A stretch of DNA of 64,000 bases from a phage (GCA_029942545.1 GCA_029942545.1_4114.1), one strand, 5' to 3'. Positions 1 to 64,000 are shown, counted from the first letter of the stretch. Program-made: numbers and translations. The notes: a model not told the origin generated them from the letters alone.

Positions 1-25
1 TCTCCCCGATACTAGGAGAATCAAA

Positions 26-178
26 ATGAAACAATACAACGCTCGGTTTGATGTTACTATCGGCAACGGCAAAGGTCAATTTTCTTTCAGTACTCGTAGG
101 AGTTATACAGAAAACTTCCTGCGTAATTGTGCACTGACAGCCGCACAAATTAAACATTACTTTCAGGCTAAAAAATGA
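26..178 (+). CDS. small hypothetical protein (50 aa)
   Basis: ATG at 26 with AGGAG at 14-18; stop TGA 176-178; below ORF-track cutoff; overlaps next ORF by 4 nt (ATGA). Confidence 0.35.
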   Translation: MKQYNARFDVTIGNGKGQFSFSTRRSYTENFLRNCALTAAQIKHYFQAKK

Positions 179-264
179 AATCATTAGCTTATTACAGTTC
201 GGCCCTGGTCGGTGCATTGATCGCGGCATTGTTAGTAACCTATCTATTCTTTATGGTGATTTAA
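175..264 (+). CDS. small hydrophobic peptide (29 aa), possible membrane peptide
   Basis: ATG 175 overlapping upstream stop; translation MKSLAYYSSALVGALIAALLVTYLFFMVI; stop TAA 262-264. Confidence 0.25.
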   Translation: MKSLAYYSSALVGALIAALLVTYLFFMVI

Positions 265-402
265 ATGAATCCTAACGGTTTAATTTACAGTACTCCTAAA
301 ACGAAAGCAGATAAAGCGAAAGCACGTAAAGCGAAAGTAAAGGAGTACATCAAGCAAGGCATGACGCGAAAGGCGGCGATTCTGAAAGCTAAAAATAAAT
401 GA
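265..402 (+). CDS. small basic hypothetical protein (45 aa)
   Basis: ATG 265 directly after upstream stop; lysine-rich product; stop TGA 400-402. Confidence 0.3.
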   Translation: MNPNGLIYSTPKTKADKAKARKAKVKEYIKQGMTRKAAILKAKNK

Positions 403-605
403 AAAAGTGGTTGACTTCGGTCAGCCATTTTGCTATTATATATTCATTGAGAGATAGCTCACTAGCCCACAGGGTGCAGGAGTGTATCTATTGTATAATG
501 ATTGAGTACAGAAAACTATTTTAAAGTATTTGATAAAAAGTACTTGCATACTATCTCAATAGGCGTATAATGTTTTACATCGCAAGGGGAAACGGTTTCC
601 CCTGG
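401..605 (+). repeat. intergenic cassette R, copy 1 (terminator-like hairpin / promoter-like TTGACT-N17-TATTAT, conserved box AGCCCACAGGGTGCA, second promoter, 5' hairpin)
   Basis: A-run + hairpin TGGTTGAC/GTCAGCCA 408-427 + T-rich tract; box 464-478; near-identical copies at ~2091, 4096, 7238, 9163. Confidence 0.6.
544..571 (+). promoter_or_regulatory. sigma70-type promoter (TTGCAT-N16-TATAAT)
   Basis: -35 544-549, -10 566-571; followed by hairpin 586-602 and RBS AAGGAAA before ATG 623. Confidence 0.55.
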
Positions 606-622
606 TAATAAGGAAACGAATC

Positions 623-964
623 ATGACTATTGCAATTGCTCAATCTAACTTTGAAAACGAAATCATCGCTCAGGTACTGCGTTTAAATGATGGTCGGGCC
701 GAAATCAATTACGGTTTCAATAGTGGTGGATGTGAAAAATATCAGTACTTTATAACTGCTGATGGCGGTGTCCTGGGCATCAATACCGTTATTGTAAACA
801 TTCAGAAAATTAATTTCAATGATCCAGACGATAGCCAGTTTTACATCACGGGCGTAGACGTGAACTATGAGGATGACTCACTAACTGATGATCACACTGG
901 TGAGAAGTTAGAAAGTGCATACGGTGAAGATGATTATCAGTCCGGTCCAGAAGATTTCGAATAA
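623..964 (+). CDS. hypothetical protein (113 aa)
   Basis: ORF track; RBS AAGGAAA 6 nt upstream; own promoter and 5' hairpin. Confidence 0.7.
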   Translation: MTIAIAQSNFENEIIAQVLRLNDGRAEINYGFNSGGCEKYQYFITADGGVLGINTVIVNIQKINFNDPDDSQFYITGVDVNYEDDSLTDDHTGEKLESAYGEDDYQSGPEDFE

Positions 965-978
965 TATTAAAAAATAGT

Positions 979-1006
979 TTGACAATAGTTTTTAGTACTG
1001 TATAAT
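979..1006 (+). promoter_or_regulatory. sigma70-type early promoter (TTGACA-N16-TATAAT)
   Basis: -35 979-984, -10 1001-1006; AGTACTG in spacer; conserved TTTACAT downstream. Confidence 0.6.
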
Positions 1007-1018
1007 AGTTTACATGAA

Positions 1019-1038
1019 GGGGAGAAATGATTCTCCCC
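1019..1038 (+). other. conserved 5'-UTR hairpin (GGGGAGAA-ATGA-TTCTCCCC)
   Basis: perfect 8-bp inverted repeat just downstream of -10; recurs with compensatory changes before many early genes. Confidence 0.55.
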
Positions 1039-1056
1039 ACTAAGAGGAAAAACAAA

Positions 1057-1269
1057 ATGGCTAATATCCGCACTGTACTGAAAAATGCAAAACAAGTTTT
1101 ATTTTCTGATCATGAAAATTTCAACAAGGATATCACAGGTGTTCGGAATATCAAAGATGTAAAAAGTGTTATGGGTATCTATTGCAATATGAAACGTGTT
1201 GGCACGTTCGGCGATAAAGTACTATACCAGGCAGGGGATTACAATTTTACACTGACTATCATTAACTAA
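1057..1269 (+). CDS. hypothetical protein (70 aa)
   Basis: track ORF 1027 starts inside the hairpin loop; ATG 1057 has RBS AAGAGG upstream, so start moved. Confidence 0.6.
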   Translation: MANIRTVLKNAKQVLFSDHENFNKDITGVRNIKDVKSVMGIYCNMKRVGTFGDKVLYQAGDYNFTLTIIN

Positions 1270-1288
1270 AAATATTATCACAGTACTA

Positions 1289-1317
1289 TTGACAACGTTT
1301 GATAGTACTGGCATAAT
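1289..1317 (+). promoter_or_regulatory. sigma70-type promoter (TTGACA-N17-CATAAT)
   Basis: -35 1289-1294, -10 1312-1317. Confidence 0.55.
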
Positions 1318-1360
1318 AACTTTTATCAAGACAACGCATATTAATTTAAGGAATACTAAA

Positions 1361-1540
1361 ATGGCTATTATCGCAAAAACTGAAATCATCGGCCTGGATT
1401 CTATCATCATGACGTTTGAAGATCAAAAAGGGATGTATGTAGTTTCCTATGGTGATTATGTTCGGGAGTATGAAACGGTAGACGAAGCCTTTGAAAGTTA
1501 CATTCGCCAGGTGAATAAAGCATACGACGACTACCGCTAA
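1361..1540 (+). CDS. hypothetical protein (59 aa)
   Basis: in-frame ATG 1361 preceded by AAGGAA; track start 1289 lies in the promoter (non-ATG codon). Confidence 0.55.
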   Translation: MAIIAKTEIIGLDSIIMTFEDQKGMYVVSYGDYVREYETVDEAFESYIRQVNKAYDDYR

Positions 1541-1567
1541 AATATATTACCAGTACTATTAAATCTA

Positions 1568-1595
1568 TTGACAATGATTGATAGTACTGTATAAT
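1568..1595 (+). promoter_or_regulatory. sigma70-type promoter (TTGACA-N16-TATAAT)
   Basis: -35 1568-1573, -10 1590-1595. Confidence 0.6.
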
Positions 1596-1639
1596 AAGTT
1601 TTATAAACAGTAGTTAACTTAACCTAAGAGAGAAACAAA

Positions 1640-1783
1640 ATGATCGCACTGGATTCATTCATCGACGCAGTACTGGCAAAAACTGGCGAGGATCTGACCG
1701 CAGAACAATACGCGATGATCGAGCAATGCCAGCAAAACGGTAAATCGGTGAAAGATACTGTTAAGATTATCCGCAAGATGTAA
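1640..1783 (+). CDS. small hypothetical protein (47 aa)
   Basis: ATG 1640 with AGAGAGAAA upstream; stop TAA 1781-1783; followed by hairpin terminator. Confidence 0.45.
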   Translation: MIALDSFIDAVLAKTGEDLTAEQYAMIEQCQQNGKSVKDTVKIIRKM

Positions 1784-1790
1784 GAATATA

Positions 1791-1820
1791 GCCCACTGGT
1801 TAACGCTGGTGGGCTTTAAT
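1791..1820 (+). terminator. putative intrinsic terminator
   Basis: GCCCAC...GTGGGC stem followed by TTTAATCATTT. Confidence 0.45.
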
Positions 1821-1888
1821 CATTTACCCTATACAATGCCAGTACTAAACCGTTTAACTCGTTAGAATGCATTACAGGACGTTTAACA

Positions 1889-2086
1889 ATGATTAGCATG
1901 AAATCAGTACAAAAACAAATTGATACATTATCAAAAATTAAACGTAAACAGTACTCATTAGAATATACAATCAATGGTAACTATCATCTAATGAAAGAAA
2001 ATAATTTTATAGTCATTGATGAATCATTGCAGATCATTAGTATAGTACTGAAAGCATTAATCAATGACAGAAAAAAGTTAAAATAA
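1889..2086 (+). CDS. hypothetical protein (65 aa)
   Basis: ORF track; weak RBS. Confidence 0.4.
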   Translation: MISMKSVQKQIDTLSKIKRKQYSLEYTINGNYHLMKENNFIVIDESLQIISIVLKALINDRKKLK

Positions 2087-2090
2087 TCTA

Positions 2091-2234
2091 TTGACAAATT
2101 ATGCCAGTACTGGCATAATACTTACATCAAGACGAGAACGTCACTAACCCATAGGGTGCACAAATGTAGCTGTCTAATATTGATCAAAAAATGATCTGAT
2201 CAATACTTGATCAATTTGCGTAAAGTAGTATAAT
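2091..2234 (+). repeat. intergenic cassette R, copy 2 (variant: promoter TTGACA-N17-CATAAT, box AACCCATAGGGTGCA, GATC cluster, second promoter TTGATC-N16-TATAAT)
   Basis: box 2146-2160; four GATC within 2182-2212; second promoter 2207-2234. Confidence 0.5.
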
Positions 2235-2417
2235 TCTATGCAGTTGGTTAGACGAAAGGTTATGATTAGTAGTGGAAGTGTATAAAAATTTTCATGGTGT
2301 GGTGATCCGCACATATGGGGATGAATATGTCGTGTCGTATGGATTGGAAAAAGTAAGAACAAGTAATATACTTGTCGCGTTACAGTACTATAGTATTTTT
2401 ATAATGAGGTTAAAATA

Positions 2418-2675
2418 ATGGCTGTAGGATTCACGAAAGATGGGGCCGAGCAAGACGAGATTAACGCAGTGATTCAGGCCGCTGTTAACCACGCTAGAAC
2501 GCAAATTAACGCACAAATAGAATCACTGATACATTGCCTCGACTGCGGCGATAAAATCCCTGAGAATCGCCGCCAGGCAGTTAAGGGGTGTAAGTACTGC
2601 ATCACTTGCCAGGCTGATCATGATAGCATATTCAAACGCAATCCCCGTAATTGTTGGCATAGATCTATGAGATAA
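2418..2675 (+). CDS. DksA/TraR-family C4 zinc-finger protein
   Basis: CLDCGDKIPENRRQAVKGCKYCITCQ matches the TraR pattern Cx2C-N17-Cx2C with conserved IPExRR; RBS GAGG. Confidence 0.75.
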   Translation: MAVGFTKDGAEQDEINAVIQAAVNHARTQINAQIESLIHCLDCGDKIPENRRQAVKGCKYCITCQADHDSIFKRNPRNCWHRSMR

Positions 2676-2681
2676 AAAGTA

Positions 2682-2709
2682 TTGACAGTGCTGTTAGTTA
2701 GTGTATAAT
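2682..2709 (+). promoter_or_regulatory. sigma70-type promoter (TTGACA-N16-TATAAT)
   Basis: -35 2682-2687, -10 2704-2709. Confidence 0.55.
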
Positions 2710-2738
2710 ATTTTATATCTTAACTGAGGATTGAAATC

Positions 2739-3095
2739 ATGGGTATACAACATATCACGCGTACTACTGACAATGGTGAAATCACTGGTTATCAAGTACA
2801 AGGCAAAGTAGCACAATTGCAGTACTGGTTTGTTAAACGTGGCATTGTCGCACCAGATCTTGATTATGATCGTGTAGCGTTTATTGATTCTCTTTATGTT
2901 GATCCCGATAATCGCGGTAACGGTGAAGGTACTGAATTAATGAATGCCTTTATTGATGCCGCCGATGATTCAGATTGTATCATCTTAGAATGCGATACGG
3001 GAGAAGATAACGCATTTAATCTTAAAGAATGGTATGAAAGTTTTGGTTTTGAAGTACTGATGGACTGCGAATATCCTATAATGATTTTATCCTAG
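2739..3095 (+). CDS. GNAT-like N-acetyltransferase (small)
   Basis: LYVDPDNRGNGEGTELMNAFI fits GNAT motif A (R-x-x-G-x-G after a beta strand); RBS GAGGA. Confidence 0.55.
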   Translation: MGIQHITRTTDNGEITGYQVQGKVAQLQYWFVKRGIVAPDLDYDRVAFIDSLYVDPDNRGNGEGTELMNAFIDAADDSDCIILECDTGEDNAFNLKEWYESFGFEVLMDCEYPIMILS

Positions 3096-3098
3096 TAC

Positions 3099-3126
3099 TT
3101 GCAATTAGTTTTAAGTACTGTATAAT
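3099..3126 (+). promoter_or_regulatory. sigma70-type promoter (TTGCAA-N16-TATAAT)
   Basis: -35 3099-3104, -10 3121-3126; hairpin 3139-3157 follows. Confidence 0.55.
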
Positions 3127-3174
3127 AGTTTACATGAAGGGGAGAATAGTTCTCCCCACTACAAGGAAAGACAA

Positions 3175-3363
3175 ATGCAAAACTTATCAAGTATTTTAGT
3201 ACAAGATGATTTCGGTAATCCTGGAAGTGCTATCATTGTTCGGGGCAATAAGGCAACGTTTGTTATTGCTGGTGGACCTGTACAGCGTAGCATTAAAAAC
3301 AATGCAGTTACAATCAATAATGTTCGCTATCGCTTAGATAAAGAATTGATTCATAAACTTTAA
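3175..3363 (+). CDS. hypothetical protein (62 aa)
   Basis: ORF track; promoter + GGGGAGAA hairpin + RBS AAGGAAAG upstream. Confidence 0.6.
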   Translation: MQNLSSILVQDDFGNPGSAIIVRGNKATFVIAGGPVQRSIKNNAVTINNVRYRLDKELIHKL

Positions 3364-3371
3364 AAAAGTAT

Positions 3372-3399
3372 TTGACAAAGCATTATAGTACTGTATAAT
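3372..3399 (+). promoter_or_regulatory. sigma70-type promoter (TTGACA-N16-TATAAT)
   Basis: -35 3372-3377, -10 3394-3399; hairpin 3412-3431. Confidence 0.6.
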
Positions 3400-3448
3400 A
3401 GTTTACATGAAGGGGAGAAATGATTCTCCCCACTAAGAGGAAAGAAAC

Positions 3449-3661
3449 ATGCAAGGTCAACTAATCGTTCGTAAATGGTCTGATACTAACGAAAAACCGT
3501 GGGATGTTCAATATATCGGACCGGACGGTGTTTCACGTTATCAACCTGGCGTAACGCATAGTACTGAGCAATATGCCGCCGCTCACCGTGAACGCCTGTT
3601 AGAATCTATGAAACAGGGATTCTGTGAAAAATTCATTCAAGATCATTGGCTGAAAGATTAA
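3449..3661 (+). CDS. hypothetical protein (70 aa)
   Basis: ORF track; RBS AAGAGGAAAG. Confidence 0.6.
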   Translation: MQGQLIVRKWSDTNEKPWDVQYIGPDGVSRYQPGVTHSTEQYAAAHRERLLESMKQGFCEKFIQDHWLKD

Positions 3662-3678
3662 TAGAAGGAGTACAGCTT

Positions 3679-3771
3679 ATGCAAATGAATCCGATGATTA
3701 TTGTTTTAGCTGTACTTATGAACATTCATGCAATAGTAGAAGTATTAACGCAATCAGGAGTAATAAAATGA
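3679..3771 (+). CDS. small hydrophobic peptide (30 aa)
   Basis: RBS AGAAGGAG 8 nt upstream of ATG 3679; below track cutoff. Confidence 0.3.
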   Translation: MQMNPMIIVLAVLMNIHAIVEVLTQSGVIK

Positions 3772-3941
3772 TCCAAGTAGAATTATCAGTACTGAAAGAT
3801 CTGTTTTATCGGTTAGGTACTAATGGCGAGTATCCTAAAAGTGATACCGCAAAACTTTTTGTATCACTCGACTTATGGCAACGCGAACAATTAGTAATGT
3901 CCTGGCGTAAAGGTAAAGCAGATAGCGAGGTGAAAGCATGA
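3768..3941 (+). CDS. small hypothetical protein (57 aa)
   Basis: ATGA overlap with upstream ORF; contains RLGTNGEY, reminiscent of the family A motif. Confidence 0.4.
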   Translation: MIQVELSVLKDLFYRLGTNGEYPKSDTAKLFVSLDLWQREQLVMSWRKGKADSEVKA

Positions 3942-4087
3942 AAGAATTCTTATTCGAAGTAGTGTTTCAAGGTGTCGGTAGCAACCAACTGATTCGCTCA
4001 AGTGGTTACAATGTTAACCAGGCATGGAATAACATTAAACAAATGTACCCGAACGCTATCACCTATCGCAACCCGAAACAAGTTTAA
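3938..4087 (+). CDS. small hypothetical protein (49 aa)
   Basis: ATGA overlap; stop TAA 4085-4087; followed by cassette R copy 3. Confidence 0.4.
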   Translation: MKEFLFEVVFQGVGSNQLIRSSGYNVNQAWNNIKQMYPNAITYRNPKQV

Positions 4088-4095
4088 AAATAATT

Positions 4096-4263
4096 GAAAA
4101 AGGGATTGACTCCGGTCAGTCCCTTTGCTATTATATACGCATAGAAACAAATCAGCCCACAGGGTGCATAAATGTATCTATTATATGCTGGTGGCTAGTA
4201 CTATCAAGTACTGAAAACTATTTTATAAAAAGTACTTGCAAAGTATCACGATAAGCGTATAAT
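4096..4263 (+). repeat. intergenic cassette R, copy 3
   Basis: hairpin GGGATTGAC-TCCG-GTCAGTCCC 4102-4123 + T-rich; box AGCCCACAGGGTGCA 4154-4168; promoter TTGCAA-N16-TATAAT 4236-4263. Confidence 0.6.
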
Positions 4264-4351
4264 GTTTTACATCAGGACGGGGAACGAAATAAGTAACCCC
4301 GTTAAGTAGTCCAGGAGTAAGACATACGAAAACCTCCCCTGATAAAATAGT

Positions 4352-4379
4352 TTGACAATAGAAATTAAACGAGTATAAT
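4352..4379 (+). promoter_or_regulatory. sigma70-type promoter (TTGACA-N16-TATAAT)
   Basis: -35 4352-4357, -10 4374-4379. Confidence 0.55.
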
Positions 4380-4409
4380 ACTTACATCAACCACAAAGAG
4401 GAATACAAA

Positions 4410-4610
4410 ATGAAACATTTTACTTTCGGTGTAGTAGGCTTTACAGTATCCAGCGGCGTTTATAAATCAGAACGCGGTGCTAAAAATGCAGCAAGTCGGG
4501 CGTATGGTTCACAGCGTGACTTACAGGTCGGTTATATTAGTAACATTAATAACATGTTTATTCCTGTTGCACAGCGTAAAGCGGGTAACATGAAATGGGA
4601 AACAATTTGA
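4410..4610 (+). CDS. hypothetical protein (66 aa)
   Basis: ORF track; RBS AAGAGGAA. Confidence 0.6.
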   Translation: MKHFTFGVVGFTVSSGVYKSERGAKNAASRAYGSQRDLQVGYISNINNMFIPVAQRKAGNMKWETI

Positions 4611-4619
4611 TAAAATAGT

Positions 4620-4647
4620 TTGACAATAGTTTTTAGTACTGTATAAT
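4620..4647 (+). promoter_or_regulatory. sigma70-type promoter (TTGACA-N16-TATAAT)
   Basis: near-identical to promoter 979-1006. Confidence 0.6.
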
Positions 4648-4677
4648 AGTTTACATCTTAATTAATAAGGAAACATC

Positions 4678-4812
4678 ATGAAAGCAGCAAACAACACTAA
4701 AAAAGCAACCAATCCCCTGGCTGGCTGGAAGTTAGATTTATCCGATGAAGTGGTTTGCACAAATCGTAATGTAGTTGAAGCTGAAAAGAAATTACGAAAA
4801 GAAAACAAATAA
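4678..4812 (+). CDS. small hypothetical protein (44 aa)
   Basis: RBS TAAGGAAA before ATG 4678; promoter upstream; the overlapping minus-strand track ORF 4662-4988 is rejected. Confidence 0.4.
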   Translation: MKAANNTKKATNPLAGWKLDLSDEVVCTNRNVVEAEKKLRKENK

Positions 4813-4815
4813 GTA

Positions 4816-4843
4816 TTGACAAAGTATCTTAGTACTGTATAAT
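4816..4843 (+). promoter_or_regulatory. sigma70-type promoter (TTGACA-N16-TATAAT)
   Basis: -35 4816-4821, -10 4838-4843; hairpin GAGGGGAA/TTCCCCTC 4858-4876. Confidence 0.6.
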
Positions 4844-4899
4844 AGTTTACATCAAGTGAGGGGAATGGTTCCCCTCCTAACAAAAAGAGAGAAATTAAA

Positions 4900-5223
4900 A
4901 TGACTATGTTCCTTACCCAGAAAGTAGAAATGAAAATTGTAACTTCCTTTGACATTAAAGTTAATCGGTGGACTGATAGCCACGGCAATACTTACCACTC
5001 ATGCTACGTGTCTGCATTGATTGGTGACCGCTGGGAAGACCTGGGACATGAAACCTTTACTTACGGTTACGGTACACAAGGCGAATACACGGGCTTGGAG
5101 ATCATTAAAGAAACCGTTATAGGTTTCAACCCGAAAGAGAAAGTACTACACAGAATTGAGAAAGAGATCAACAAAGAAATTACAGTTCGATACTACGATG
5201 TAAAACGTAAGAAAGACATGTAA
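4900..5223 (+). CDS. hypothetical protein (107 aa)
   Basis: ORF track; RBS AAGAGAGAAA. Confidence 0.6.
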   Translation: MTMFLTQKVEMKIVTSFDIKVNRWTDSHGNTYHSCYVSALIGDRWEDLGHETFTYGYGTQGEYTGLEIIKETVIGFNPKEKVLHRIEKEINKEITVRYYDVKRKKDM

Positions 5224-5245
5224 TAGAATCCATTTAAAGTACTAT

Positions 5246-5274
5246 TTGACATTGCCCAGATAGTACTTTATAAT
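5246..5274 (+). promoter_or_regulatory. sigma70-type promoter (TTGACA-N17-TATAAT)
   Basis: -35 5246-5251, -10 5269-5274. Confidence 0.55.
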
Positions 5275-5322
5275 AGACTCTAACTTGTAGTACTAATTAA
5301 CTTAACTAATAGGATGTACACC

Positions 5323-5718
5323 ATGATTACTAAATTCTTCGCTACCCGTGAACAAGCTCGCATCGTTGCCCGTGAAGAAGGTGAAACATTTAAAGACATG
5401 GGCAAAGATGCACCGAAAGGACAACGCTGGGCGGTACAGTTCAAAGAGATCTCTGATATTGTGAATTCACCTGAGCCTGTACTTACAGCAGCAGAACTAA
5501 AGCAAGCTCAAGAACTGGCTGAAGTACTGAACGCTCAAGATGACTTTTTGAAAGGTTCTGATATTGAAGTTACAGTTAACGCAAATGCATGGACTCACGC
5601 GGATCACCTGGCAAACCTTAAGCGTCCAAGTGAACTGATTCGTAACCAGAAAGAGATCCGTCATGACCGTAAAGGAAACCGTGTAACAGTATACAGTAAA
5701 CGCCGCCAGGTTATCTAA
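5323..5718 (+). CDS. hypothetical protein (131 aa)
   Basis: AGGA 5311-5314 is 8 nt upstream of ATG 5323; track ATG 5314 sits too close to the RBS; alternative start 5314. Confidence 0.6.
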   Translation: MITKFFATREQARIVAREEGETFKDMGKDAPKGQRWAVQFKEISDIVNSPEPVLTAAELKQAQELAEVLNAQDDFLKGSDIEVTVNANAWTHADHLANLKRPSELIRNQKEIRHDRKGNRVTVYSKRRQVI

Positions 5719-5741
5719 TAACTTTGCAGTACTAACAACAC

Positions 5742-5766
5742 GGCGGGAACTATTCCCGCCTTTTTT
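5742..5766 (+). terminator. intrinsic terminator
   Basis: GGCGGGAA-CTA-TTCCCGCC followed by TTTTTT. Confidence 0.8.
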
Positions 5767-5780
5767 ATAGGATAAACAAA

Positions 5781-6035
5781 ATGATTAAGGTTCAACTATC
5801 AAACGATAATGTATTACGGGTACACTATAAAGCCCCACAGAGAATCATCACAAAGGCCGTACAGCTTGCTAATGAGTTTATTAATGGTAGTCTATTGCCT
5901 AGGAAGTTAAGCAACGGGAAACTACGTGTTATCGATGTAGACACTAACAATAGAATAGTGATCGAGAGTACTGGAAAAATTAATCTATATGAACACCAAC
6001 AATACAATAAAAAAATAAAACTAATATCACGTTGA
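5781..6035 (+). CDS. hypothetical protein (84 aa)
   Basis: ORF track; weak RBS. Confidence 0.45.
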   Translation: MIKVQLSNDNVLRVHYKAPQRIITKAVQLANEFINGSLLPRKLSNGKLRVIDVDTNNRIVIESTGKINLYEHQQYNKKIKLISR

Positions 6036-6060
6036 CAGTACTCAAATGTTTTAGTATTAT
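6032..6060 (+). promoter_or_regulatory. sigma70-type promoter (TTGACA-N17-TATTAT)
   Basis: -35 6032-6037, -10 6055-6060. Confidence 0.55.
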
Positions 6061-6093
6061 GTATCTATACCAACACAGAGAGAGAGAAACAAA

Positions 6094-6312
6094 ATGAAAT
6101 TATCTAAAATCGAAAAGAAAACTATTGATGAAGCAGTGAAGCACGGTTATACCTTTCGTAATGATTCACACTTCACTAGTTTTCAACAGGGAAACCGTAC
6201 CATCAAAAAACTCATTGATAAAGGTTTACTCACTAAGGTTGATAACGGGAACGGTGTAGAATATCAACCGACAGAAGACGCATTATCACTAAAGAAATAT
6301 TCTATTATCTAA
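6094..6312 (+). CDS. hypothetical protein (72 aa)
   Basis: ORF track; leader duplicated before the next gene. Confidence 0.55.
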   Translation: MKLSKIEKKTIDEAVKHGYTFRNDSHFTSFQQGNRTIKKLIDKGLLTKVDNGNGVEYQPTEDALSLKKYSII

Positions 6313-6341
6313 TTGACAGTACTCAAATGTTTTAGTACTAT
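6313..6341 (+). promoter_or_regulatory. sigma70-type promoter (TTGACA-N17-TACTAT), duplicate of 6032-6060
   Basis: same 17-nt spacer GTACTCAAATGTTTTAG as the upstream promoter. Confidence 0.5.
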
Positions 6342-6369
6342 GAATGCATACCAACACGGGGAAAACAAA

Positions 6370-6597: not shown

Positions 6598-6644
6598 TAG
6601 TAAAGTACTGTAATATAGTTTCATTAACTCAAGGAGTCAACACA

Positions 6645-7229: not shown

Positions 7230-7237
7230 AAAAGATT

Positions 7238-7398: not shown

Positions 7399-7453
7399 GT
7401 TTTATATCGAGAGGGGGAAATGGTTCTCCCTGGTACTAAAAGGAATCAAGACG

Positions 7454-7675: not shown

Positions 7676-7678
7676 GTA

Positions 7679-7706: not shown

Positions 7707-7759
7707 AGTTTACATCAAGGGGAGAATAGCTCTCCCCACCAATAAAAGGAAACAAAATT

Positions 7760-51277: not shown

Positions 51278-51279
51278 TT

Positions 51280-56504: not shown

Positions 56505-56511
56505 AACTAAA

Positions 56512-57776: not shown

Positions 57777-57777
57777 T

Positions 57778-58041
57778 ATGAATATTCAAGATAGATTACA
57801 ATTACTGTACACACTTGAACAGGCTGCTTATGATCTTGTTCGAAAAATCTCAGATGAACTACCTAAAGGAACTAAAGTTCGTGTACGTGAGATGAATTAT
57901 TTTTCTGGAGTAATTGAAGAACAAGTACTAACAGTGAATAAAGTAACATACTATGAATCTGAGTTGTCTATTCAGTGTGAATCTGATGATGGATTAATAT
58001 CATATTATGGAACTGATGTAGATATAGAGGTAATAAAATGA
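57778..58041 (+). CDS. family D small paralog (GK-x-V-R motif)
   Basis: LPKGTKVRVREMNYFSG; ATG 57778; track start 57733 is upstream. Confidence 0.5.
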   Translation: MNIQDRLQLLYTLEQAAYDLVRKISDELPKGTKVRVREMNYFSGVIEEQVLTVNKVTYYESELSIQCESDDGLISYYGTDVDIEVIK

Positions 58042-59180
58042 CCCTTTTGCAAATATATGAAGATTTAATGCACTTATGTAATACAAACGATGCATTCTTT
58101 TATGTGGATCATAAAAGTCCTGCTGGTGGCACGTATCGTGTATTCAGTTATCGTCTAGCATCATACACTGATTTCATGCAACCAAATGCGTTGGAAACCC
58201 GTGGCTCTATGTGGGAAATTGATGAAGAAGGTGAAATGATACGTTGTGCAGCACGTACAATGAAAAAGTTCTTCAATGCTTACGAGAATCCTGCTACAAT
58301 GTTCCCTGCTAACACCACATGCGATGACATTGCGGTAGTGATGCCTAAGTTGGATGGTTCGATTATCAGTACTTACCGTGATAATGATGGTGAGATTCGT
58401 TGTAAATCACATACTGCATTGTATTCTGACCATGCGATTAACAGTACTCGACTTATTAACGAGAACCAGAATTTGTATCAGTACATCGACGAAGCGGAAC
58501 GTTTAGGTTACACAGTTAATATGGAGTATACAAGCCCAGAGTACCGAATTGTATTACCATATCAGGTAGAACAACTGTTTGTACTGAACGTTCGTCATCG
58601 TGTGAGTGGTGAGTTGCTATGTGGTAAAGCACTACGTGATAAGTTTCCATGTCTTGCACAGTACAGTACTAATATGACTGGAAAAGATATTCATCACACT
58701 TTTCCGGTACGAAATACCTTCCGTGAAAGCGTGGAGGAAGTTCATAAAATGCTTGATATTGAGGGTTTTGTGTGCATCCTAAATAATGGGACAATGTGTA
58801 AAATAAAGACTGACTGGTACAGTTCATTACATCTTACAAAAGATAGTATTATTATTGATTCTCATTTATATGAAGCAGTATTAAATGGTTCAAGTGATGA
58901 TTTAAAACAATTGTTCAGTACTGATGAATATGCTATGCAAAAGATATTAAGAATGGAACAATTGGTATTTTCGTGCTATAATGCATTACAAGATGAAGTA
59001 GAAAGCTTCGTCAAGGAACACAAGCACTTGGAGCGAAAGGAATTCGCAATGAAGGTTCAGGAGTGTTTAACTAATGAACTGAATCGTCAGGGCTTGGCCT
59101 TTGCAATGTATAACAATAAGAAAGTTGATTACAAAGAGACTCTTATAAAATACATGAAAATTGTACTAAAGGATTTTTAG
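58038..59180 (+). CDS. rnlA: RNA ligase 1 (T4 RnlA-like)
   Basis: 380 aa; N-terminus and nucleotidyltransferase lysine motif VMPKLDGS align with T4 Rnl1 as recalled (from memory, no search); conserved C-terminal WYSSLH-like region. Confidence 0.85.
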   Translation: MTLLQIYEDLMHLCNTNDAFFYVDHKSPAGGTYRVFSYRLASYTDFMQPNALETRGSMWEIDEEGEMIRCAARTMKKFFNAYENPATMFPANTTCDDIAVVMPKLDGSIISTYRDNDGEIRCKSHTALYSDHAINSTRLINENQNLYQYIDEAERLGYTVNMEYTSPEYRIVLPYQVEQLFVLNVRHRVSGELLCGKALRDKFPCLAQYSTNMTGKDIHHTFPVRNTFRESVEEVHKMLDIEGFVCILNNGTMCKIKTDWYSSLHLTKDSIIIDSHLYEAVLNGSSDDLKQLFSTDEYAMQKILRMEQLVFSCYNALQDEVESFVKEHKHLERKEFAMKVQECLTNELNRQGLAFAMYNNKKVDYKETLIKYMKIVLKDF

Positions 59181-59210
59181 TACTATCTAGCCTAAGCACA
59201 AGGAGAAGTG

Positions 59211-59465
59211 ATGGCTAAACCTAAGTATAAAAATGACGGTTCCCTTTCTCCGACTGAGTTCAGGAAAATACAAGAAGAAATCGATGAATTACAGCACAAA
59301 CGCTCAATGAAAGGTGTGAAGATAAGTAAGAAACGAATCGAGAATACCTTCGGATGTAGTAGTACTGAATACAAGAAGAAAAGGAAACCAAAAGGTGTTA
59401 AGCCGAGAATACATGATGTAACTCGCTATACATCGAAACGTGAAAATAAATTTGACCCACTATAA
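59211..59465 (+). CDS. small basic protein (84 aa)
   Basis: RBS AAGGAG before ATG 59211; K/R-rich. Confidence 0.55.
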   Translation: MAKPKYKNDGSLSPTEFRKIQEEIDELQHKRSMKGVKISKKRIENTFGCSSTEYKKKRKPKGVKPRIHDVTRYTSKRENKFDPL

Positions 59466-59474
59466 GGAGTTCAT

Positions 59475-59711
59475 ATGAAAGTTGAAGTTCAGCATAGTAT
59501 TGTTCAGGATATGTCAGTAGTTAAATTTCTTTCCTTGAAAGATTATTTCAGATGTATCAAGTTCCTAGAAGAATCTCAATTACAGTGGACCCCATTAAAG
59601 TACAGTTCATCCAATGATACTGCTAGTATTCGTTGTGATGAATCTGTACTTGTGAAAATCTCCAAGCGATTTGGAGTTGGGAAATATAATGATAAACAAT
59701 GCACAAAGTAA
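59475..59711 (+). CDS. hypothetical protein (78 aa)
   Basis: ORF track; RBS AAGGAG. Confidence 0.55.
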   Translation: MKVEVQHSIVQDMSVVKFLSLKDYFRCIKFLEESQLQWTPLKYSSSNDTASIRCDESVLVKISKRFGVGKYNDKQCTK

Positions 59712-60000
59712 TTTACTATATATAAAGTCAGTAGAAGCTGAAATTAAAAATTCAGTACAAACTATCGTCGATGAAATGATTGACAAATACAAGAGCAATC
59801 TTATTGGGAAGAAAGTCAGATGTTGGGATTACACATTTAAACACTGGTACGATTCCGAGATTGTGAAAGTTGATGTGAATACTGATAGTAATGGTCTAAT
59901 TAATGGTATTGCGTATATTGGTGTTTTAATACGAAAGGGAACACCACAGGAATGGCTCACCTATCATAATATAGAGCATGTTAAATTTTTAGAGGATTAA
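59689..60000 (+). CDS. family D small paralog
   Basis: LIGKKVRCWDYTFKHWYD; ATG 59689. Confidence 0.5.
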   Translation: MINNAQSNLLYIKSVEAEIKNSVQTIVDEMIDKYKSNLIGKKVRCWDYTFKHWYDSEIVKVDVNTDSNGLINGIAYIGVLIRKGTPQEWLTYHNIEHVKFLED

Positions 60001-60003
60001 AGG

Positions 60004-60936
60004 ATGCCAACTATCACACTAACAGTTGGATTGCCTGGGTGTGGTAAAACTACATGGGCAGTGCAAGAGATTAAAAAAGCCAAATCCAAGACTATCAACA
60101 TCAACCGTGATGATATTCGTGAATCTATGGCTGGGTCACATGATGCTTACAAATTCAACGATGCTAATGAGCAGTACGTAGATAATTTACAGTTCAGTGC
60201 AGCAAATTCAGCAGCAGAGAATGGTTGGAACATCATAGTATCCGATACAAACCTTAAACCACATTTCCGTAATCTCTGGAAAGTATGGGCTACAGATAAT
60301 GGTTATGATTACAAAGAAAAGAACTTCTATGATGATTTTGTACCTAATGAAGACCGTGGTGCAGATGTTCATGAATTCTTTAAGATTAAAGAGTTCGTAA
60401 AACTTTGTAAGAAATATAACCTCCAGCGTGAGCGTTCAGTACCAGATGATATCATTGACAAAATGGCAGATACGTACTATTATAGTAAAGCATTACACAT
60501 TGGTTACTATGGTAATTCACGCGAAGCTGCTATCATCGTTGATATCGATGGAACTCTTGCTCATAAATGGGGTCGTAATCCTTACGATGAAAGTACTGTT
60601 CTTCAGGATACACCTGATGAAGAAGTTATTTTGTCTATTATCGCTGAAGCAGTTTTTCATAAACGCAAGATTATCGTCATGAGTGGGCGTACTGAAGGGT
60701 GTCGTGCGGATACCGAACAGTGGCTTAAGAATTGGGGTGTTCCTTACGATGCATTGTTTATGCGAGATATCGATGATAAACGTCCTGATGATGTTGTAAA
60801 ATTCGACCTGTACATGAAAAATGTGGTTGATCATTACGATGTTAAAAAGGTATATGATGACCGCGATCAAGTTGTATTCATGTGGCGTAAGCTACTTGGG
60901 TTGAAAGTTTTCCAAGTGGCTGAAGGAAATTTCTAA
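60004..60936 (+). CDS. pnk: polynucleotide 5'-kinase / 3'-phosphatase (T4 Pnk-like)
   Basis: N-terminal P-loop GLPGCGKTT; C-terminal phosphatase motif VDIDGTLA (DxDGT); 310 aa; directly downstream of RNA ligase. Confidence 0.85.
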   Translation: MPTITLTVGLPGCGKTTWAVQEIKKAKSKTININRDDIRESMAGSHDAYKFNDANEQYVDNLQFSAANSAAENGWNIIVSDTNLKPHFRNLWKVWATDNGYDYKEKNFYDDFVPNEDRGADVHEFFKIKEFVKLCKKYNLQRERSVPDDIIDKMADTYYYSKALHIGYYGNSREAAIIVDIDGTLAHKWGRNPYDESTVLQDTPDEEVILSIIAEAVFHKRKIIVMSGRTEGCRADTEQWLKNWGVPYDALFMRDIDDKRPDDVVKFDLYMKNVVDHYDVKKVYDDRDQVVFMWRKLLGLKVFQVAEGNF

Positions 60937-60940
60937 TACA

Positions 60941-60967
60941 AAAGGGATCATATATTGGTCCCTTTTT
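60941..60967 (+). terminator. intrinsic terminator
   Basis: AAAGGGATCA-TATAT-TGGTCCCTTT with T-rich tail. Confidence 0.75.
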
Positions 60968-61003
60968 CTTTTAAGGTACATTATAGTGAATGTAACAACA
61001 CAG

Positions 61004-61162
61004 ATGTTATTACAAAAAGACTACTTAGAAAATATAGAACGATACTATAGATTGTCTTTGTATGAAAATAAGCATAAAAATTATAGTTTTGATAAACTAC
61101 TAAATTCCAGTACTGATGATTATCTATTTTCATCAATGTTTTATGTGAGAGGTTTATTATAA
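61004..61162 (+). CDS. small hypothetical protein (52 aa)
   Basis: ATG 61004; stop overlaps next start (TAATG); below track cutoff. Confidence 0.3.
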   Translation: MLLQKDYLENIERYYRLSLYENKHKNYSFDKLLNSSTDDYLFSSMFYVRGLL

Positions 61163-61422
61163 TGGATAAATTTCACACAGATATAACACAGATAGGTAAT
61201 CTTATCAATAGTCTAATTACTGATTTAGAAGAAAAGTACTTAGGTCGAAATGTATACGTAGAAATGTATGAAACATATGGTGTTATTGATATGATTTATT
61301 ACAGTGCATTGAAGTGTGAAATACGTTTAACAGTATGTTTGTTTGAAAAAAATACATTCAACAGAAGTACTGCAATTCGCCAAGTTGGAGTTGATGATAT
61401 AGAATTATACGAGGAACAATGA
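61162..61422 (+). CDS. family D small paralog
   Basis: LEEKYLGRNVYVEMYETYG. Confidence 0.5.
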   Translation: MDKFHTDITQIGNLINSLITDLEEKYLGRNVYVEMYETYGVIDMIYYSALKCEIRLTVCLFEKNTFNRSTAIRQVGVDDIELYEEQ

Positions 61423-61673
61423 TGTTTGAGCAGGACTTAGAGATATTCAAAAGTCATATTGATTACTTGACTATATTAGAAAATGATTTAACTACAAAGT
61501 ACAAAGGCATTCGTGTTCTGTGCTGGTATGATGATTGGGATTATAAACGTGAACTCACGATTGATCGAATTTATTTCAGTGACGGTGTACTAAATGTACA
61601 TGGTGTAAATGATTTTGGTCATTCATATACATATTCTAATAATGCTAAATTTAAAAGGATCTACAATGAATGA
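61419..61673 (+). CDS. family D small paralog
   Basis: LTTKYKGIRVLCWYDDWDY; ATGA overlap. Confidence 0.5.
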   Translation: MMFEQDLEIFKSHIDYLTILENDLTTKYKGIRVLCWYDDWDYKRELTIDRIYFSDGVLNVHGVNDFGHSYTYSNNAKFKRIYNE

Positions 61674-61968
61674 ATATTATCATAATTTATTCGATTACAT
61701 AAAACTAATAGATGATCTTTCTTTTGAATTTCTCAGTACTGAAAAAGTTCTTGAACCTCTCTATTATGATTGTATTAGTTCACTATGTTTAGATGAAAAA
61801 GAGATATTAGCAAACAACTTACCATCCACGGTCTGTACAATCAATGGTTCCAAGGCTTTAGTGTGCGAGGTTAATTTTCATAAATCACTTAATACAATTG
61901 TTTACAAGTTCGATAACACTTGGGTAAATCATGTAACCAGTAATATTAAATCTGTGAGATTTTTATGA
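61666..61968 (+). CDS. hypothetical protein (100 aa)
   Basis: ATG 61666 (MNEYYHNLF); track start 61609 is upstream. Confidence 0.5.
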   Translation: MNEYYHNLFDYIKLIDDLSFEFLSTEKVLEPLYYDCISSLCLDEKEILANNLPSTVCTINGSKALVCEVNFHKSLNTIVYKFDNTWVNHVTSNIKSVRFL

Positions 61969-62261
61969 ATATAAAAAAATTATTTGAACAAGTAAATTTA
62001 TTGTACTGGTGTTCAGACGGGTCAGATAAAGAAAATAGTGAAGCTTTTTTAGAATTATTCAGAAATGAAATACACATAATTAGAAGATACTTAATTGATA
62101 ATAAAACTGAAGTAAAAGTTAGATACCATAATGGTACTTTAAAGAATGGTGTAATTATTGGATTGATAGTTACACGAATGTCTAATAATATTAAAGTTGC
62201 AGTTAGATTAATGACTGATGATGGTGTCTACACAATAGAAGCTAGTGAGATTATATATTAA
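61965..62261 (+). CDS. family D-like small paralog
   Basis: NKTEVKVRYHNGTLKNGVIIG; ATGA overlap. Confidence 0.5.
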   Translation: MNIKKLFEQVNLLYWCSDGSDKENSEAFLELFRNEIHIIRRYLIDNKTEVKVRYHNGTLKNGVIIGLIVTRMSNNIKVAVRLMTDDGVYTIEASEIIY

Positions 62262-62567
62262 ATGGATATACAAACATTCAATAAACTTAAGTACTATGAT
62301 GATGGTTTTGCATTAATAATTAACGAACTTGATGGAATACCATACGAATATCATAATCAAGTAATGAAGATAATAAAATGTATATGTGAAGAATTAAAAA
62401 GTATATTTAAAAATGAATATGTTTATGATTTAGGTAATAATAGCAAAAAACTATACATAAAGAAATTCTGGGGAACGCATTGCGGTTTGATGGTCGATTT
62501 AGGTTTAAGTTTAGACGATAATTCTGAATCATGTTCATTATATATAGATGAAATGCGAATATCATGA
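62262..62567 (+). CDS. hypothetical protein (101 aa)
   Basis: ORF track. Confidence 0.5.
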   Translation: MDIQTFNKLKYYDDGFALIINELDGIPYEYHNQVMKIIKCICEELKSIFKNEYVYDLGNNSKKLYIKKFWGTHCGLMVDLGLSLDDNSESCSLYIDEMRIS

Positions 62568-62624
62568 GACGTATCAGAATTCGGTGATATAATTTGATTA
62601 CATCACCAATAGGGAGAAGTTGAA

Positions 62625-62951
62625 GTGAATGGTTCGTTTTTAACAATATTAGAAAAGACAACCGAGATGCTTTCTAGCTCGTTAATGCAGATTTTCAGTA
62701 CTAATAATTTATACAATACCCAGGTGTTAGATTCAATTAATAATAACTATGTGGTAAGTATATCTGATGAAATATGTCCATTTAACGCGTATTCAATTTA
62801 TAGTGTAGAAGAGTTTCATATATCCGAGATTCGATGTGGTTTTGGTGCTTGGTTAGTTCTAAATGAACGTTCAGGGTTGTCTTTATACATCGAAGAAGTT
62901 AGTAAATTTATATACAAAGGAGTAGAATATGTTAACCCCAATTATTCTTAG
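62625..62951 (+). CDS. hypothetical protein (108 aa), GTG start
   Basis: AGGGAG 62611-62616 is 8 nt before GTG 62625; the nearby ATG is out of frame. Confidence 0.5.
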   Translation: MNGSFLTILEKTTEMLSSSLMQIFSTNNLYNTQVLDSINNNYVVSISDEICPFNAYSIYSVEEFHISEIRCGFGAWLVLNERSGLSLYIEEVSKFIYKGVEYVNPNYS

Positions 62952-63570
62952 CAGTGCATATGTAATCGGTATTATTATTTCTGGTATGCTTGCATATAAC
63001 TATAACCGAAGTGTTCTAGGTTATGTAGTACTTGGTACAGTACTAAGTCCAGTGATTGCCATTGGTCTTCTTGTTATGCTAGGTGAGAAAAATACAAGCT
63101 TCTTTATTACTAAAGAACTTGATAAAATCACTCCAGCACCAGAAACAGTTATTCCAGAAGTTAAAGAAGAAGTTAAAGAAGAAGTTAAAGAAGTTGAAGT
63201 TCAAATGCAAGTTAAAGTGTATAATACACTTGAAGAAACTGATTCTAAAGTTGTAGTGAATGTAGTTCCAGTCGTTGAAGATGTGAAACCAAAAGCTCCT
63301 AAAGTACAGAAAAATACTAAAACTGCAAAGAAAGCTCGTTACACTAAAGGTAAGAACAAAGGTAAATCTAAGGATGAACCACAACTAGGTGTTCATGACC
63401 ATACTGCACAAATTGCAACGGCAGCGACCGCAGCAGCAATCGTAACATCACCAATCTACAACAATGATGATTACAGTGATTATAGCCGTCACAGCAGTTC
63501 TTCCTCTGATTCTTGTTCCTATGATAGCTCTAGTTCTGATTCAAGTTCATCGTCTGGAAGTTGTGATTAA
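62929..63570 (+). CDS. membrane protein with EVKEEVKEEVKEVEV repeat and Ser-rich C-terminal tail
   Basis: two N-terminal hydrophobic segments; low-complexity repeat; SSSSSDSCSYDSSSSDSSSSSGSCD tail; RBS AAAGGAG. Confidence 0.6.
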   Translation: MLTPIILSSAYVIGIIISGMLAYNYNRSVLGYVVLGTVLSPVIAIGLLVMLGEKNTSFFITKELDKITPAPETVIPEVKEEVKEEVKEVEVQMQVKVYNTLEETDSKVVVNVVPVVEDVKPKAPKVQKNTKTAKKARYTKGKNKGKSKDEPQLGVHDHTAQIATAATAAAIVTSPIYNNDDYSDYSRHSSSSSDSCSYDSSSSDSSSSSGSCD

Positions 63571-63899
63571 TGTCAATGAAACCACTAATTCAACATAATA
63601 TTTTTTATAGGTCATTATTCAAAATTCAAGATGATTTTTATCAGACGTTGAGTAATGATCTTATAGGTAAAACTGTACGATATTCGGAACAATACATCAA
63701 ACGTATGACAAGTGAGTATATTGACCCTGAATACGAATACGACATTGAACACATTAATCCCAATACTAGAATGAAAATCATTGAGATATTTAAGAATGGG
63801 AGAACTATAGGTGCTGAAATTGAGTACTTGAATTGTGATTGTTACATAGATACCGAGTTAAGTTTGGATTATCTTGTTTTAGTGGATGATGAGGAATAA
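63570..63899 (+). CDS. family D small paralog
   Basis: LIGKTVRYSEQY; ATGA overlap. Confidence 0.5.
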   Translation: MSMKPLIQHNIFYRSLFKIQDDFYQTLSNDLIGKTVRYSEQYIKRMTSEYIDPEYEYDIEHINPNTRMKIIEIFKNGRTIGAEIEYLNCDCYIDTELSLDYLVLVDDEE

Positions 63900-63901
63900 T
63901 T

Positions 63902-64000
63902 ATGATAACATTTTTTGCAATATATGGTTTTGTAGCATTTGTTACATTTATAACCAACTTTCTAGTACTTAATTGGGGTTGTTTTAAAGATGAAATCATG
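63902..64000 (+). CDS. hypothetical membrane protein (5' partial, runs past window end)
   Basis: ATG 63902; hydrophobic MITFFAIYGFVAFVTFITNFLVL; no stop inside the window. Confidence 0.4.
   Translation, partial: MITFFAIYGFVAFVTFITNFLVLNWGCFKDEIM

Follow-up and report, generated by a model that had tools for sequence, protein, structure and literature searches.

AGTACT, a strongly over-represented palindromic hexamer in a 121Q-like jumbo phage, and its possible role as a recognition site for a DNA-binding protein

The sites of the nucleoid proteins SlmA (SlmA-binding sequence, SBS, GTGAGTACTCAC), Noc (Noc-binding site, NBS, ATTTCCCGGGAAAT) and MatP (matS) are dyad-symmetric words scattered over the genome, in genes as well as between them, and the dimeric protein bound to each kind serves to mark DNA and does not regulate a single gene. 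In this study, the palindromic hexamer AGTACT was investigated in a stretch of 64,000 nucleotides from a phage (GCA_029942545.1, sequence GCA_029942545.1_4114.1), hereafter called the window, and it resembles these nucleoid-protein sites in symmetry and scatter. However, SBS, NBS and matS are 12-14 bp long and number tens per multi-megabase chromosome, whereas AGTACT has a core of 6 bp, occurs about 900 times per 350 kb, bends codon and amino-acid usage and carries flanks that do not suit SBS. The stoperators of cluster A mycobacteriophages, which are bound by one phage protein, the immunity repressor, are 13-14 bp, asymmetric, oriented with transcription and present at about 25-35 per 50 kb. 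Like them, AGTACT is a short motif repeated genome-wide that stands in promoters, where it may act as an operator, and also in and between genes; unlike them, it is a palindrome with a 6-bp core at about 130-170 per 50 kb in a virulent phage, and no repressor gene was recognised in the Pfam and PHROG scans.

Chi (GCTGGTGG), FtsK-orienting polar sequences (KOPS) and DNA uptake sequences are enriched 'self' words, asymmetric and biased in orientation, and such words let an enzyme tell genomes apart. AGTACT is likewise short, far above chance, spread through coding DNA, over-represented relative to the other genome in the cell and evenly distributed; as a palindrome it does not have the asymmetry and orientation bias of a Chi-like word, and we know of no enzyme that responds to it as a self word. 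The promoter words of Marseillevirus (AAATATTT) and Mimivirus (AAAATTGA) number in the hundreds and are restricted to intergenic DNA, where they keep a set distance from genes. AGTACT shares with them a short, sometimes palindromic form and hundreds of copies in a large viral genome; unlike them, it has 79% of its sites in genes and follows no positional rule, and the intergenic confinement, fixed start distance and asymmetric flanks of a promoter core were not observed. Restriction-site avoidance, as in Staphylococcus phage K, from which GATC is absent, also concerns an exact short palindrome under strong genome-wide selection, with the sign reversed, since AGTACT is enriched. AGTACT differs from all these nearest known kinds in length, density, symmetry and penetration of coding sequence.

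By exact count, the window contains 216 AGTACT (mean 3.4 per kb), compared with 16.7 +/- 3.5 (maximum 26) in 100 dinucleotide-preserving shuffles; base composition predicts 21.4, and first- and third-order models predict 17.0 and 82, respectively. The excess is about thirteen-fold over chance. AGTACT ranks first among all hexamers by z-score and is the only palindromic hexamer above 2x, the runner-up being ACGCGT at 1.8x. The original prediction, made by eye from the sequence, had asserted a strong over-representation and named a ratio near 1 to 2 as what would speak against it; at 216 against about 17, the assertion holds, as does its statement that the excess is not restriction avoidance, the site being 9-13x enriched. 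Its 19 copies in the first ~3.1 kb lie close to the 20 counted in the first 3,100 bases, while its figure of 5-6 per kb applies to the first 10 kb only, because the density is not uniform along the window. The non-coding DNA of the first 10.8 kb carries 12.8 AGTACT per kb and coding DNA 3.65-3.8 per kb (first 10.8 kb, and 25.6 kb to the end), and two blocks, 10,841-15,833 (Desert 1) and 18,061-25,595 (Desert 2), hold none.

The window belongs to Asteriusvirus, the E. coli jumbo phage 121Q/PBECO4 group of ~350-kb myophages; positions 26,000-34,000 are 99.3% identical to phage 121Q, and the first 12 kb are more mosaic (61% covered, 96.6% identity). The whole 121Q genome (348,532 bp) harbors 903 AGTACT against about 100 expected, roughly one per 390 bp. 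Every 5-kb bin of it holds the word, the longest gap in 348 kb outside the two deserts is 2.1 kb, and genes of the two orientations carry 2.7 and 2.1 per kb. The phage density of 2.6-3.4 per kb compares with 0.22 per kb in a 50-kb sample of E. coli K-12.

An order-4 (maximal-order) Markov model expects 183.5 copies in the window, a ratio of only 1.18, and this favors the view that the word has no function and is a by-product of codon bias, promoters, paralogues or very-short-patch-like repair; promoter cassettes and a paralogous protein family are indeed present. The ratio does not refute the excess, because the conditioning pentamers mostly derive from AGTACT itself (T follows 61% of AGTAC and A precedes 75% of GTACT), and the maximal-order expectation was therefore rejected as a test. 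Single-mismatch neighbors of AGTACT are enriched 0.6-2.4x only, with the exception of AGTACA at 4x, and the full word exceeds by about 3x the enrichment obtained by multiplying those of its two halves, left and right. A very-short-patch-like repair drive was also rejected, since AGTATT (1.8x) and AATACT (1.1x) are not depleted as such a drive predicts.

The original prediction that AGTACT lies both between genes and in coding sequence in several frames agrees with the counts (46 and 170 sites, the latter 74/38/58 by reading frame). When every protein sequence was kept and synonymous codons were permuted within genes, 50.8 +/- 6.2 coding AGTACT were obtained against the 170 observed, a difference of 19 standard deviations, and shuffling codon order gave 22.6; codon or amino-acid bias as the cause is ruled out by these two shuffles. 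The dipeptides Ser-Thr (129 against 70 expected) and Val-Leu (171 against 100) are raised 1.7-1.8x, with the reverse dipeptides Thr-Ser and Leu-Val at expectation, and 74 of the 129 Ser-Thr pairs are spelled AGT-ACT where codon usage predicts 17. Only 10 of these 74 fall in the FQxST motif of the paralogues. This signifies that the AGTACT sites have shaped codon choice and dipeptide content, and that selection on them acts at the level of DNA and not of protein. The paralogue motif FQxS(T/L)V (called family B) accounts for about 15 AGTACT, in 10 Ser-Thr and 5 Gln-Tyr contexts, and together with the promoters covers about 38 of the 216 sites, under a fifth, so that promoter copies and one codon pair, which the original prediction had named as what would speak against it, do not explain the excess. 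Separately, 121Q encodes a tRNA-Ser with the unusual anticodon ACU (75464-75555 of 121Q, confirmed with ARAGORN), which matches AGU, the commonest Ser codon of the phage (37%), whose use is inflated by AGTACT.

Conservation leads in the same direction. Phage TH47 is 85% identical over 55 kb, and of the 190 AGTACT that could be aligned with it, 146 (77%) were intact. The background was 48% (binomial p = 1e-15), whether taken from all hexamers or from hexamers of matched composition, and local flank identity predicts 47.6%. Per-base identity was 0.92-0.96 inside the word and 0.82-0.92, mostly 0.83-0.88, in the flanks, and the intergenic sites were the best conserved (35 of 39, 90%). Across genera (~73% DNA identity, surroundings of the capsid gene), 27% of sites are shared against a background of 20%, and each genome keeps 20-26 AGTACT against about 4 expected; this turnover of sites with a kept density suggests moderate purifying selection on individual sites, with the density being maintained. 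The absence of any function is accordingly extremely unlikely, having been largely refuted already by the codon shuffles, the one-mismatch counts, the conservation and the promoter and paralogue count, and the AGTACA substitution described below does not fit a drive either.

The flanks of AGTACT carry C at -1 in 44% and G at +1 in 47% of sites, are T-rich at -3/-4 and A-rich at +3/+4, and are A-rich at -7 to -9 and T-rich at +7 to +9, giving a weak extended consensus, ttcAGTACTgaa, which is dyad-symmetric to about +/-9. At every position except +/-1 the relative entropy is at most 0.08 bit. With flank information near zero, the sites are not copies of a repeat, and the extended flanking similarity of a repeat family or of paralogues was not observed among them. 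All annotated genes of the corresponding 121Q region are on the + strand, and flanks that are symmetric even though all genes lie on one strand speak for a symmetric reader that recognises the DNA in its double-stranded form. The spacing of AGTACT is slightly more even than random (variance/mean 0.64-0.95), and between 25596 and 64000 only 14 of 89 genes lack the word, compared with 25.7 under a Poisson model. A search for helical phasing or clustering gave near-Poisson spacing, with a small peak at 20-22 bp arising from promoter pairs only. No positional preference within genes was detected save a hump at 0.5-0.8 of gene length, which coincides with the usual place of the paralogue motif.

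About 23 AGTACT are associated with promoters. In the commonest architecture, TTGACA-N9-AGTACT followed after 1-2 nucleotides by a TATAAT-like element (11 copies), the word occupies the spacer; in six copies it is joined to the -35 element as AGTACTTGCA, in three promoters a second AGTACT lies just upstream of the -35 (AGTACT-N1-2-TTGACA), and in three copies it overlaps TTGACA (TTGACAGTACT). Pairs and triplets also exist, with a further site 10 or 20-24 bp upstream. Among the sigma-70-like matches of the first 10 kb, 15 of 23 contain AGTACT, which bears out the original prediction that it lies in the spacer of most early promoters, and of the eight matches without it, four are terminator hairpins (AAAAAGGGATTGACTCCGGTCAGTCCCTTTGC). 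The exact string AGTACTGTATAAT was found eight times only. A palindrome that overlaps the -35/-10 region of sigma-70 promoters has the placement that would be expected of an operator. In relatives, RpoD-like, TGAAACG-type and T4-late-like promoters have been described (PMC5259590).

The enrichment is confined to one group of phages. All relatives with a capsid protein of 80% identity or more show a 3.2-8x excess of AGTACT in the surroundings of the capsid gene. They include IMG/VR contigs, one of them Yersinia phage fHe-Yen9-04; Erwinia phage Kaldavass has 94 against 14.7 expected in 41 kb, and Klebsiella phage RaK2 80 against 10. At 0.3-3x, Vibrio phage 2.275.O, with a capsid identity of 79%, and some 26 relatives further removed are at or near chance, and enrichment is absent from the Vibrio, Pseudomonas-type and more distant relatives sampled. 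By genus, the enriched phages fall in Asteriusvirus, Mimasvirus, Alcyoneusvirus and Eneladusvirus, and PA5oct-like phages are among those not enriched. The AGTACT enrichment is thus shared by the sampled enterobacterial genera (RaK2, Kaldavass and the Yersinia phage), and its restriction to one clade fits a co-evolving reader encoded by the phage. It has not been described in the literature located on 121Q-like, RaK2-like and other jumbo phages.

Because of the codon shuffles, the site conservation, the symmetric flanks and the restriction to one clade, AGTACT is best regarded as a selected signal at the DNA level. We tentatively put first, at somewhat less than an even chance, the reading that it is the recognition site of a dimeric DNA-binding protein and serves, in addition, as operator in most early promoters. 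AGTACT (ttcAGTACTgaa) would then be a positively selected site on double-stranded DNA for a dyad-symmetric, likely dimeric, sequence-specific protein, which would most likely be a product of the phage itself and restricted to the enterobacterial RaK2/121Q-like jumbo phages. Occupancy of about 900 evenly spread sites, in genes of both strands, would coat or mark the phage DNA, an effect suggested by the even sites and by a density of 2.6-3.4 per kb against about 0.2 in E. coli. At early promoters the same protein would be an operator-bound regulator, most simply a repressor that shuts off early transcription. We infer that the reader is a protein and phage-encoded, as we do the effect of its binding.

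Several observations weigh against this reading. The strict 6-bp core with its low tolerance of mismatches resembles the site of a restriction or modification enzyme more than that of a typical transcription factor; outside promoters the sites occur one by one at nearly Poisson spacing and form no obvious cooperative arrays; and conserved blocks of 5 and 7.5 kb without AGTACT mean that complete coverage is not required. On strand statistics the word may also act at the level of RNA, a role which these statistics cannot separate because AGTACT is palindromic. Pfam scans of 20 early proteins and PHROGs scans of 10 proteins, which between them took in early-region and block proteins, revealed no DNA-binding domain and no reader. 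A sequence-specific DNA-binding protein is the best fit among the functions listed by the original prediction. The packaging or recombination signal of that list is neither supported nor excluded, the roughly 900 evenly scattered sites arguing against packaging.

The strictness of the core gives its weight to a different agent, a phage restriction-like endonuclease or nickase that would act on AGTACT transiently in the cell, in recombination-dependent replication or in the processing of concatemers. A strict 6-bp palindrome with a sharp loss at one mismatch is a Type II-like pattern, and the word is the ScaI/Eco255I site. The annotation of 121Q lists several endonucleases, of the HNH, GIY-YIG and other types, and AGTACT is densest in the terminal-repeat region. 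We nevertheless consider such a nuclease unlikely, as about 900 cuts per genome would be destructive and the operator-like placement in promoters is left unexplained. Moreover, virion DNA of phage fEgEco12 gives digests that match the in-silico patterns for ten enzymes (PMC13070987), and motif-linked nicks were reported in a different phage, not in the related jumbo phages (PMC11780129).

The same strict palindrome may instead be a target of base modification, as the original prediction had also suggested; the modification would be methylation or a larger adduct, with more sites giving more protection or signalling. The word is of the type that methyltransferases classically recognise, two or three DNA methyltransferases are encoded by the phages, and RaK2 DNA was reported to be resistant to many restriction enzymes (PMC3622015). 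Against this stands the nanopore methylome of Kaldavass (native against amplified DNA), which comprises GATC, CCWGG and TGCAT and not AGTACT although Kaldavass shares the AGTACT excess (PMC11780129). In Hallingskeid, another related jumbo phage, for which AGTACT was not counted, only GATC and CCWGG were reported (PMC11780129). The methylated motifs reported account for the predicted methyltransferases, and a protective modification gives no reason for a tenfold enrichment of its target. The only methyltransferase of the window belongs to the Dam family (Table 1) and is the probable source of the GATC methylation reported for relatives. The two marks of a Type II restriction-modification system are lacking, namely methylation of the site by a cognate methyltransferase carried in the genome, as judged indirectly, from the methylome of Kaldavass and not of an Asteriusvirus, and avoidance of the site by exposed phages, AGTACT being 9-13x enriched. 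We therefore regard a modification target as very unlikely. GATC itself is under-represented in the window (0.56x), and no match was obtained when solved structures were searched with the Dam-family methyltransferase.

AGTACT also stands at the center of SBS, the sequence bound by the host nucleoid-occlusion protein SlmA (PMC3020112), and the phage may thereby hijack SlmA to block cell division. SBS is a 12-bp palindrome, GTRAGYRCTYAC, in which G1, T2, A4 and G5 are strongly required and position 3 is a purine (PMC3020112), and the hexamer is identical to its core (A4 G5 Y6 and complement). The enriched clade infects Enterobacterales, and infection by Asteriusvirus Sharanji, whose genome contains no known division inhibitor, yields filamentous cells with DNA spread throughout (PMC11895373). 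The flanks do not bear this out: the phage sites have G at -3 in 15% and prefer C at -1, GTRAGYRCTYAC has no match in the window and none in the 348 kb of 121Q, an SBS-like half-flank occurs at 11 and 9 of 903 sites, and GT[AG]AGTACT occurs at 11 of 903. The relative infecting Vibrio shows no enrichment, and Vibrio has SlmA. SlmA hijacking was consequently rejected as improbable, given the unfit flanks and the lack of an SlmA homologue in the phage.

The even spacing of about 390 bp would suit an extended start site for a T4-type primase, in which ACT is recognised and AGTAC templates a pentamer primer. For T4 primase, the hexamer consists of one cryptic base and a five-base primer template, which is the length of AGTACT, and the one-strand ban on ACT described below has the shape of a primase specificity. 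However, a primase gives no reason for a palindrome with symmetric flanks (a prior of about 1 in 64), sites of three nucleotides would not have to be enriched, the placement in promoters is left unexplained, and no obvious cost of priming would justify a total ban on ACT. We hold this role to be highly improbable.

The two deserts differ in kind. Desert 1 lies within an array of about 25 diverged paralogues of ~70 aa with an LGTNYQE motif (11068-17046), has AGT at 0.63x and ACT at 1.5x, and is conserved in phage TH47; recent duplication was rejected as its cause, the paralogues sharing a median amino-acid identity of only 35%. Desert 2 lacks AGTACT because ACT is absent altogether from the coding strand. 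Its ACT-free run (18058-25595, about 21 genes) spans 7,538 nt of the + strand where 131 ACT are expected. The GenBank record of 121Q has a corresponding run of 7,511 nt (161803-169313, 144 expected), by far the most extreme trinucleotide-free run in that record, and TH47 and CMSTMSU have runs of 6,976 nt and 8,461 nt, with about 55% and about 45% identity, respectively, in the one block protein checked. The ban is strand-specific, AGT being of normal frequency, and holds in all three frames; TCT is about three-fold depleted in the block, and CCT and GCT are not depleted. Within Desert 2, AGTACA occurs 39 times against 3.4 expected (11x; frames 16/11/11), A follows AGTAC in 39 of 40 cases, and the flanks (c...g) are as for AGTACT; this one-orientation variant is found only inside the ACT-free block. 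A wholesale conversion of ACT to ACA was rejected, since ACA gains 6.7 per kb and ACT loses 18.4 per kb. The AGTACA stand-in implies that the agent favoring AGTACT accepts the nearest permitted word, and such a substitution would fit a graded binding affinity and not a mutational origin.

The ACT-free block suggests that transcripts are kept free of ACU, or that another strand-specific ban operates. The first possibility leads to the notion of AGUACU as a processing or decay site of an endoribonuclease, comparable to T4 RegB at GGAG, with the ACU-free block made of transcripts that are immune to it. A 7.5-kb absence of ACT from the sense strand in all frames is simplest as selection on RNA, AGTACA is favored on the sense strand in genes of both orientations, a palindrome is present in transcripts whichever strand is transcribed, and an early gene encodes a protein with a toxin domain of the ParE/RelE superfamily (Table 1). 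In spite of this, we find an RNA signal distinctly unlikely. The flanks are dyad-symmetric even under the constraints of one-strand coding, an RNA site need not be palindromic, and many AGTACT stand in promoter spacers, upstream of start sites. Besides, Desert 1 lacks AGTACT and is rich in ACT, so that one ACU-specific nuclease cannot explain both deserts.

A second word of this genome is at the opposite extreme. GCGC is totally absent, with none in the window (30 expected) and none in the 348,532 bp of 121Q (178 expected), and it is also absent from every sampled relative that has the AGTACT excess (capsid-region samples of 17-41 kb). It has normal frequency in the Vibrio phage and most of the more distant relatives and occurs at about 7 per kb in E. 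coli. The avoidance of GATC in phage K is its best analogue, and no mention of the GCGC absence was found in the literature located on jumbo phages.

The GCGC absence and the ACT-free block raise the idea that self and host are told apart by sequence words and not by modified bases. One could imagine a three-layer identity code, consisting of the GCGC purge, the packing with AGTACT and the ACU-free block, which would replace base modification of the T4 type; we rate this proposal as rather unlikely. In such a code, a GCGC-directed phage nuclease would destroy host DNA only, a phage protein would recognise, coat, regulate or protect only the AGTACT-rich phage DNA, and the transcripts of the 7.5-kb block would survive an ACU-cutting ribonuclease, AGTACA being the permitted stand-in there.

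Returning to a DNA-binding protein as reader of AGTACT, phages usually avoid short palindromes, and here one is raised ten-fold across 350 kb in several genera infecting Enterobacterales, with a force that reshapes codon use, dipeptide content and possibly the phage tRNA set. This points to an unrecognised protein-DNA system that would be central to DNA management in jumbo phages without a nucleus, with early-gene shut-off and genome marking or protection as possible roles. An experimental handle is offered by the 6-bp bait (ttcAGTACTgaa against ttcAGTTCTgaa), the commercial enzyme ScaI and the defined promoters.

Table 1. Positions of the AGTACT-related regions, promoters, cassettes and accompanying features in the 64,000-nucleotide window
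Feature	Position	Strand	Description
AGTACT sites	1..64000	.	216 copies; 170 in genes, 46 between genes or on gene boundaries
Early small-gene region	1..10840	+	67 AGTACT: 37 in 2.9 kb of non-coding DNA, 30 coding
Desert 1	10841..15833	+	no AGTACT; GTAC 12 observed, 12.6 expected
Desert 2	18061..25595	+	no AGTACT; ACT absent from coding strand
Densely packed genes	25596..64000	+	136 AGTACT, 128 coding (3.65 per kb)
Main early promoter type, example	979..1006	+	TTGACA-N9-AGTACT-G-TATAAT; AGTACT 994-999 between -35 and -10
TTGACA-N9-AGTACT promoters, -35 starts	979, 1289, 1568, 2091, 3372, 4620, 4816, 7679, 9324, 9641, one more	+	11 in total
Repeated intergenic cassette	4187..4263	+	Chi 4187-4194; AGTACT 4197, 4207, 4231; TATAAT 4258-4263
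Similar intergenic cassettes	539, 7342-7366, 8223, 10052	+	
Hairpin cassettes AAAAAGGGATTGACTCCGGTCAGTCCCTTTGC	411-445, 4106-4140, 7248-7282, 9173-9207		A-run, ~10-bp stem, T-run
Chi octamers GCTGGTGG	1805, 3268, 4187, 6408, 7817, 9279, 58122	+	
Chi octamer GCTGGTGG	49482	-	
Early protein with ParE-like toxin domain	5781-6035		84 aa; PF24732, E = 3e-10, above curated cut-off
DNA N6-adenine methyltransferase	50226-50747		phage Dam family PF05869; 173 aa, NPPY motif

Regarding the layout of the window, the direct terminal repeat of fEgEco12, whose physical ends are known, measures 20,993 bp (PMC13070987), and, placed on relatives with known ends, the window opens about 3.3-3.6 kb into their terminal repeat. 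From the match coordinates and the fEgEco12 repeat (PMC13070987), the first 14-18 kb of the window probably consist of terminal-repeat early genes. Short stretches of this early region (e.g., 971-4657, within 1-12000) have counterparts of 84-90% identity in unrelated phages, among them ~140-kb coliphages and a Shigella phage, which suggests that small early genes or cassettes are exchanged between phage groups. The early protein with the ParE-like domain is a possible toxin of the ParE/RelE superfamily.

In the repeated intergenic cassette of Table 1, the AGTACT spacings are 10 and 24 bp, and the last copy is fused to the -35 element (AGTACTTGCA). The four hairpin cassettes (AAAAAGGGATTGACTCCGGTCAGTCCCTTTGC) resemble intrinsic terminators that work in both directions, and they score as promoters by chance; each is followed, about 90-130 nt downstream, by a promoter that carries AGTACT. 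Chi is strongly enriched and co-oriented in the window: the + strand has 7 copies where 0.21 would be expected, six of these fall within the first 9.3 kb, and some Chi sites adjoin AGTACT in the intergenic cassettes. In 121Q as a whole, Chi occurs 18 times on the + strand and 11 times on the - strand, with 1.1 expected for each. The motif of family B, of the type (E/D)(E/D)xxFQxS(T/L)V(Y/H/W)D, was detected in 37 of 176 predicted genes, at about 17000-48000, a very large paralogous family that PHROGs labels 'unknown'.

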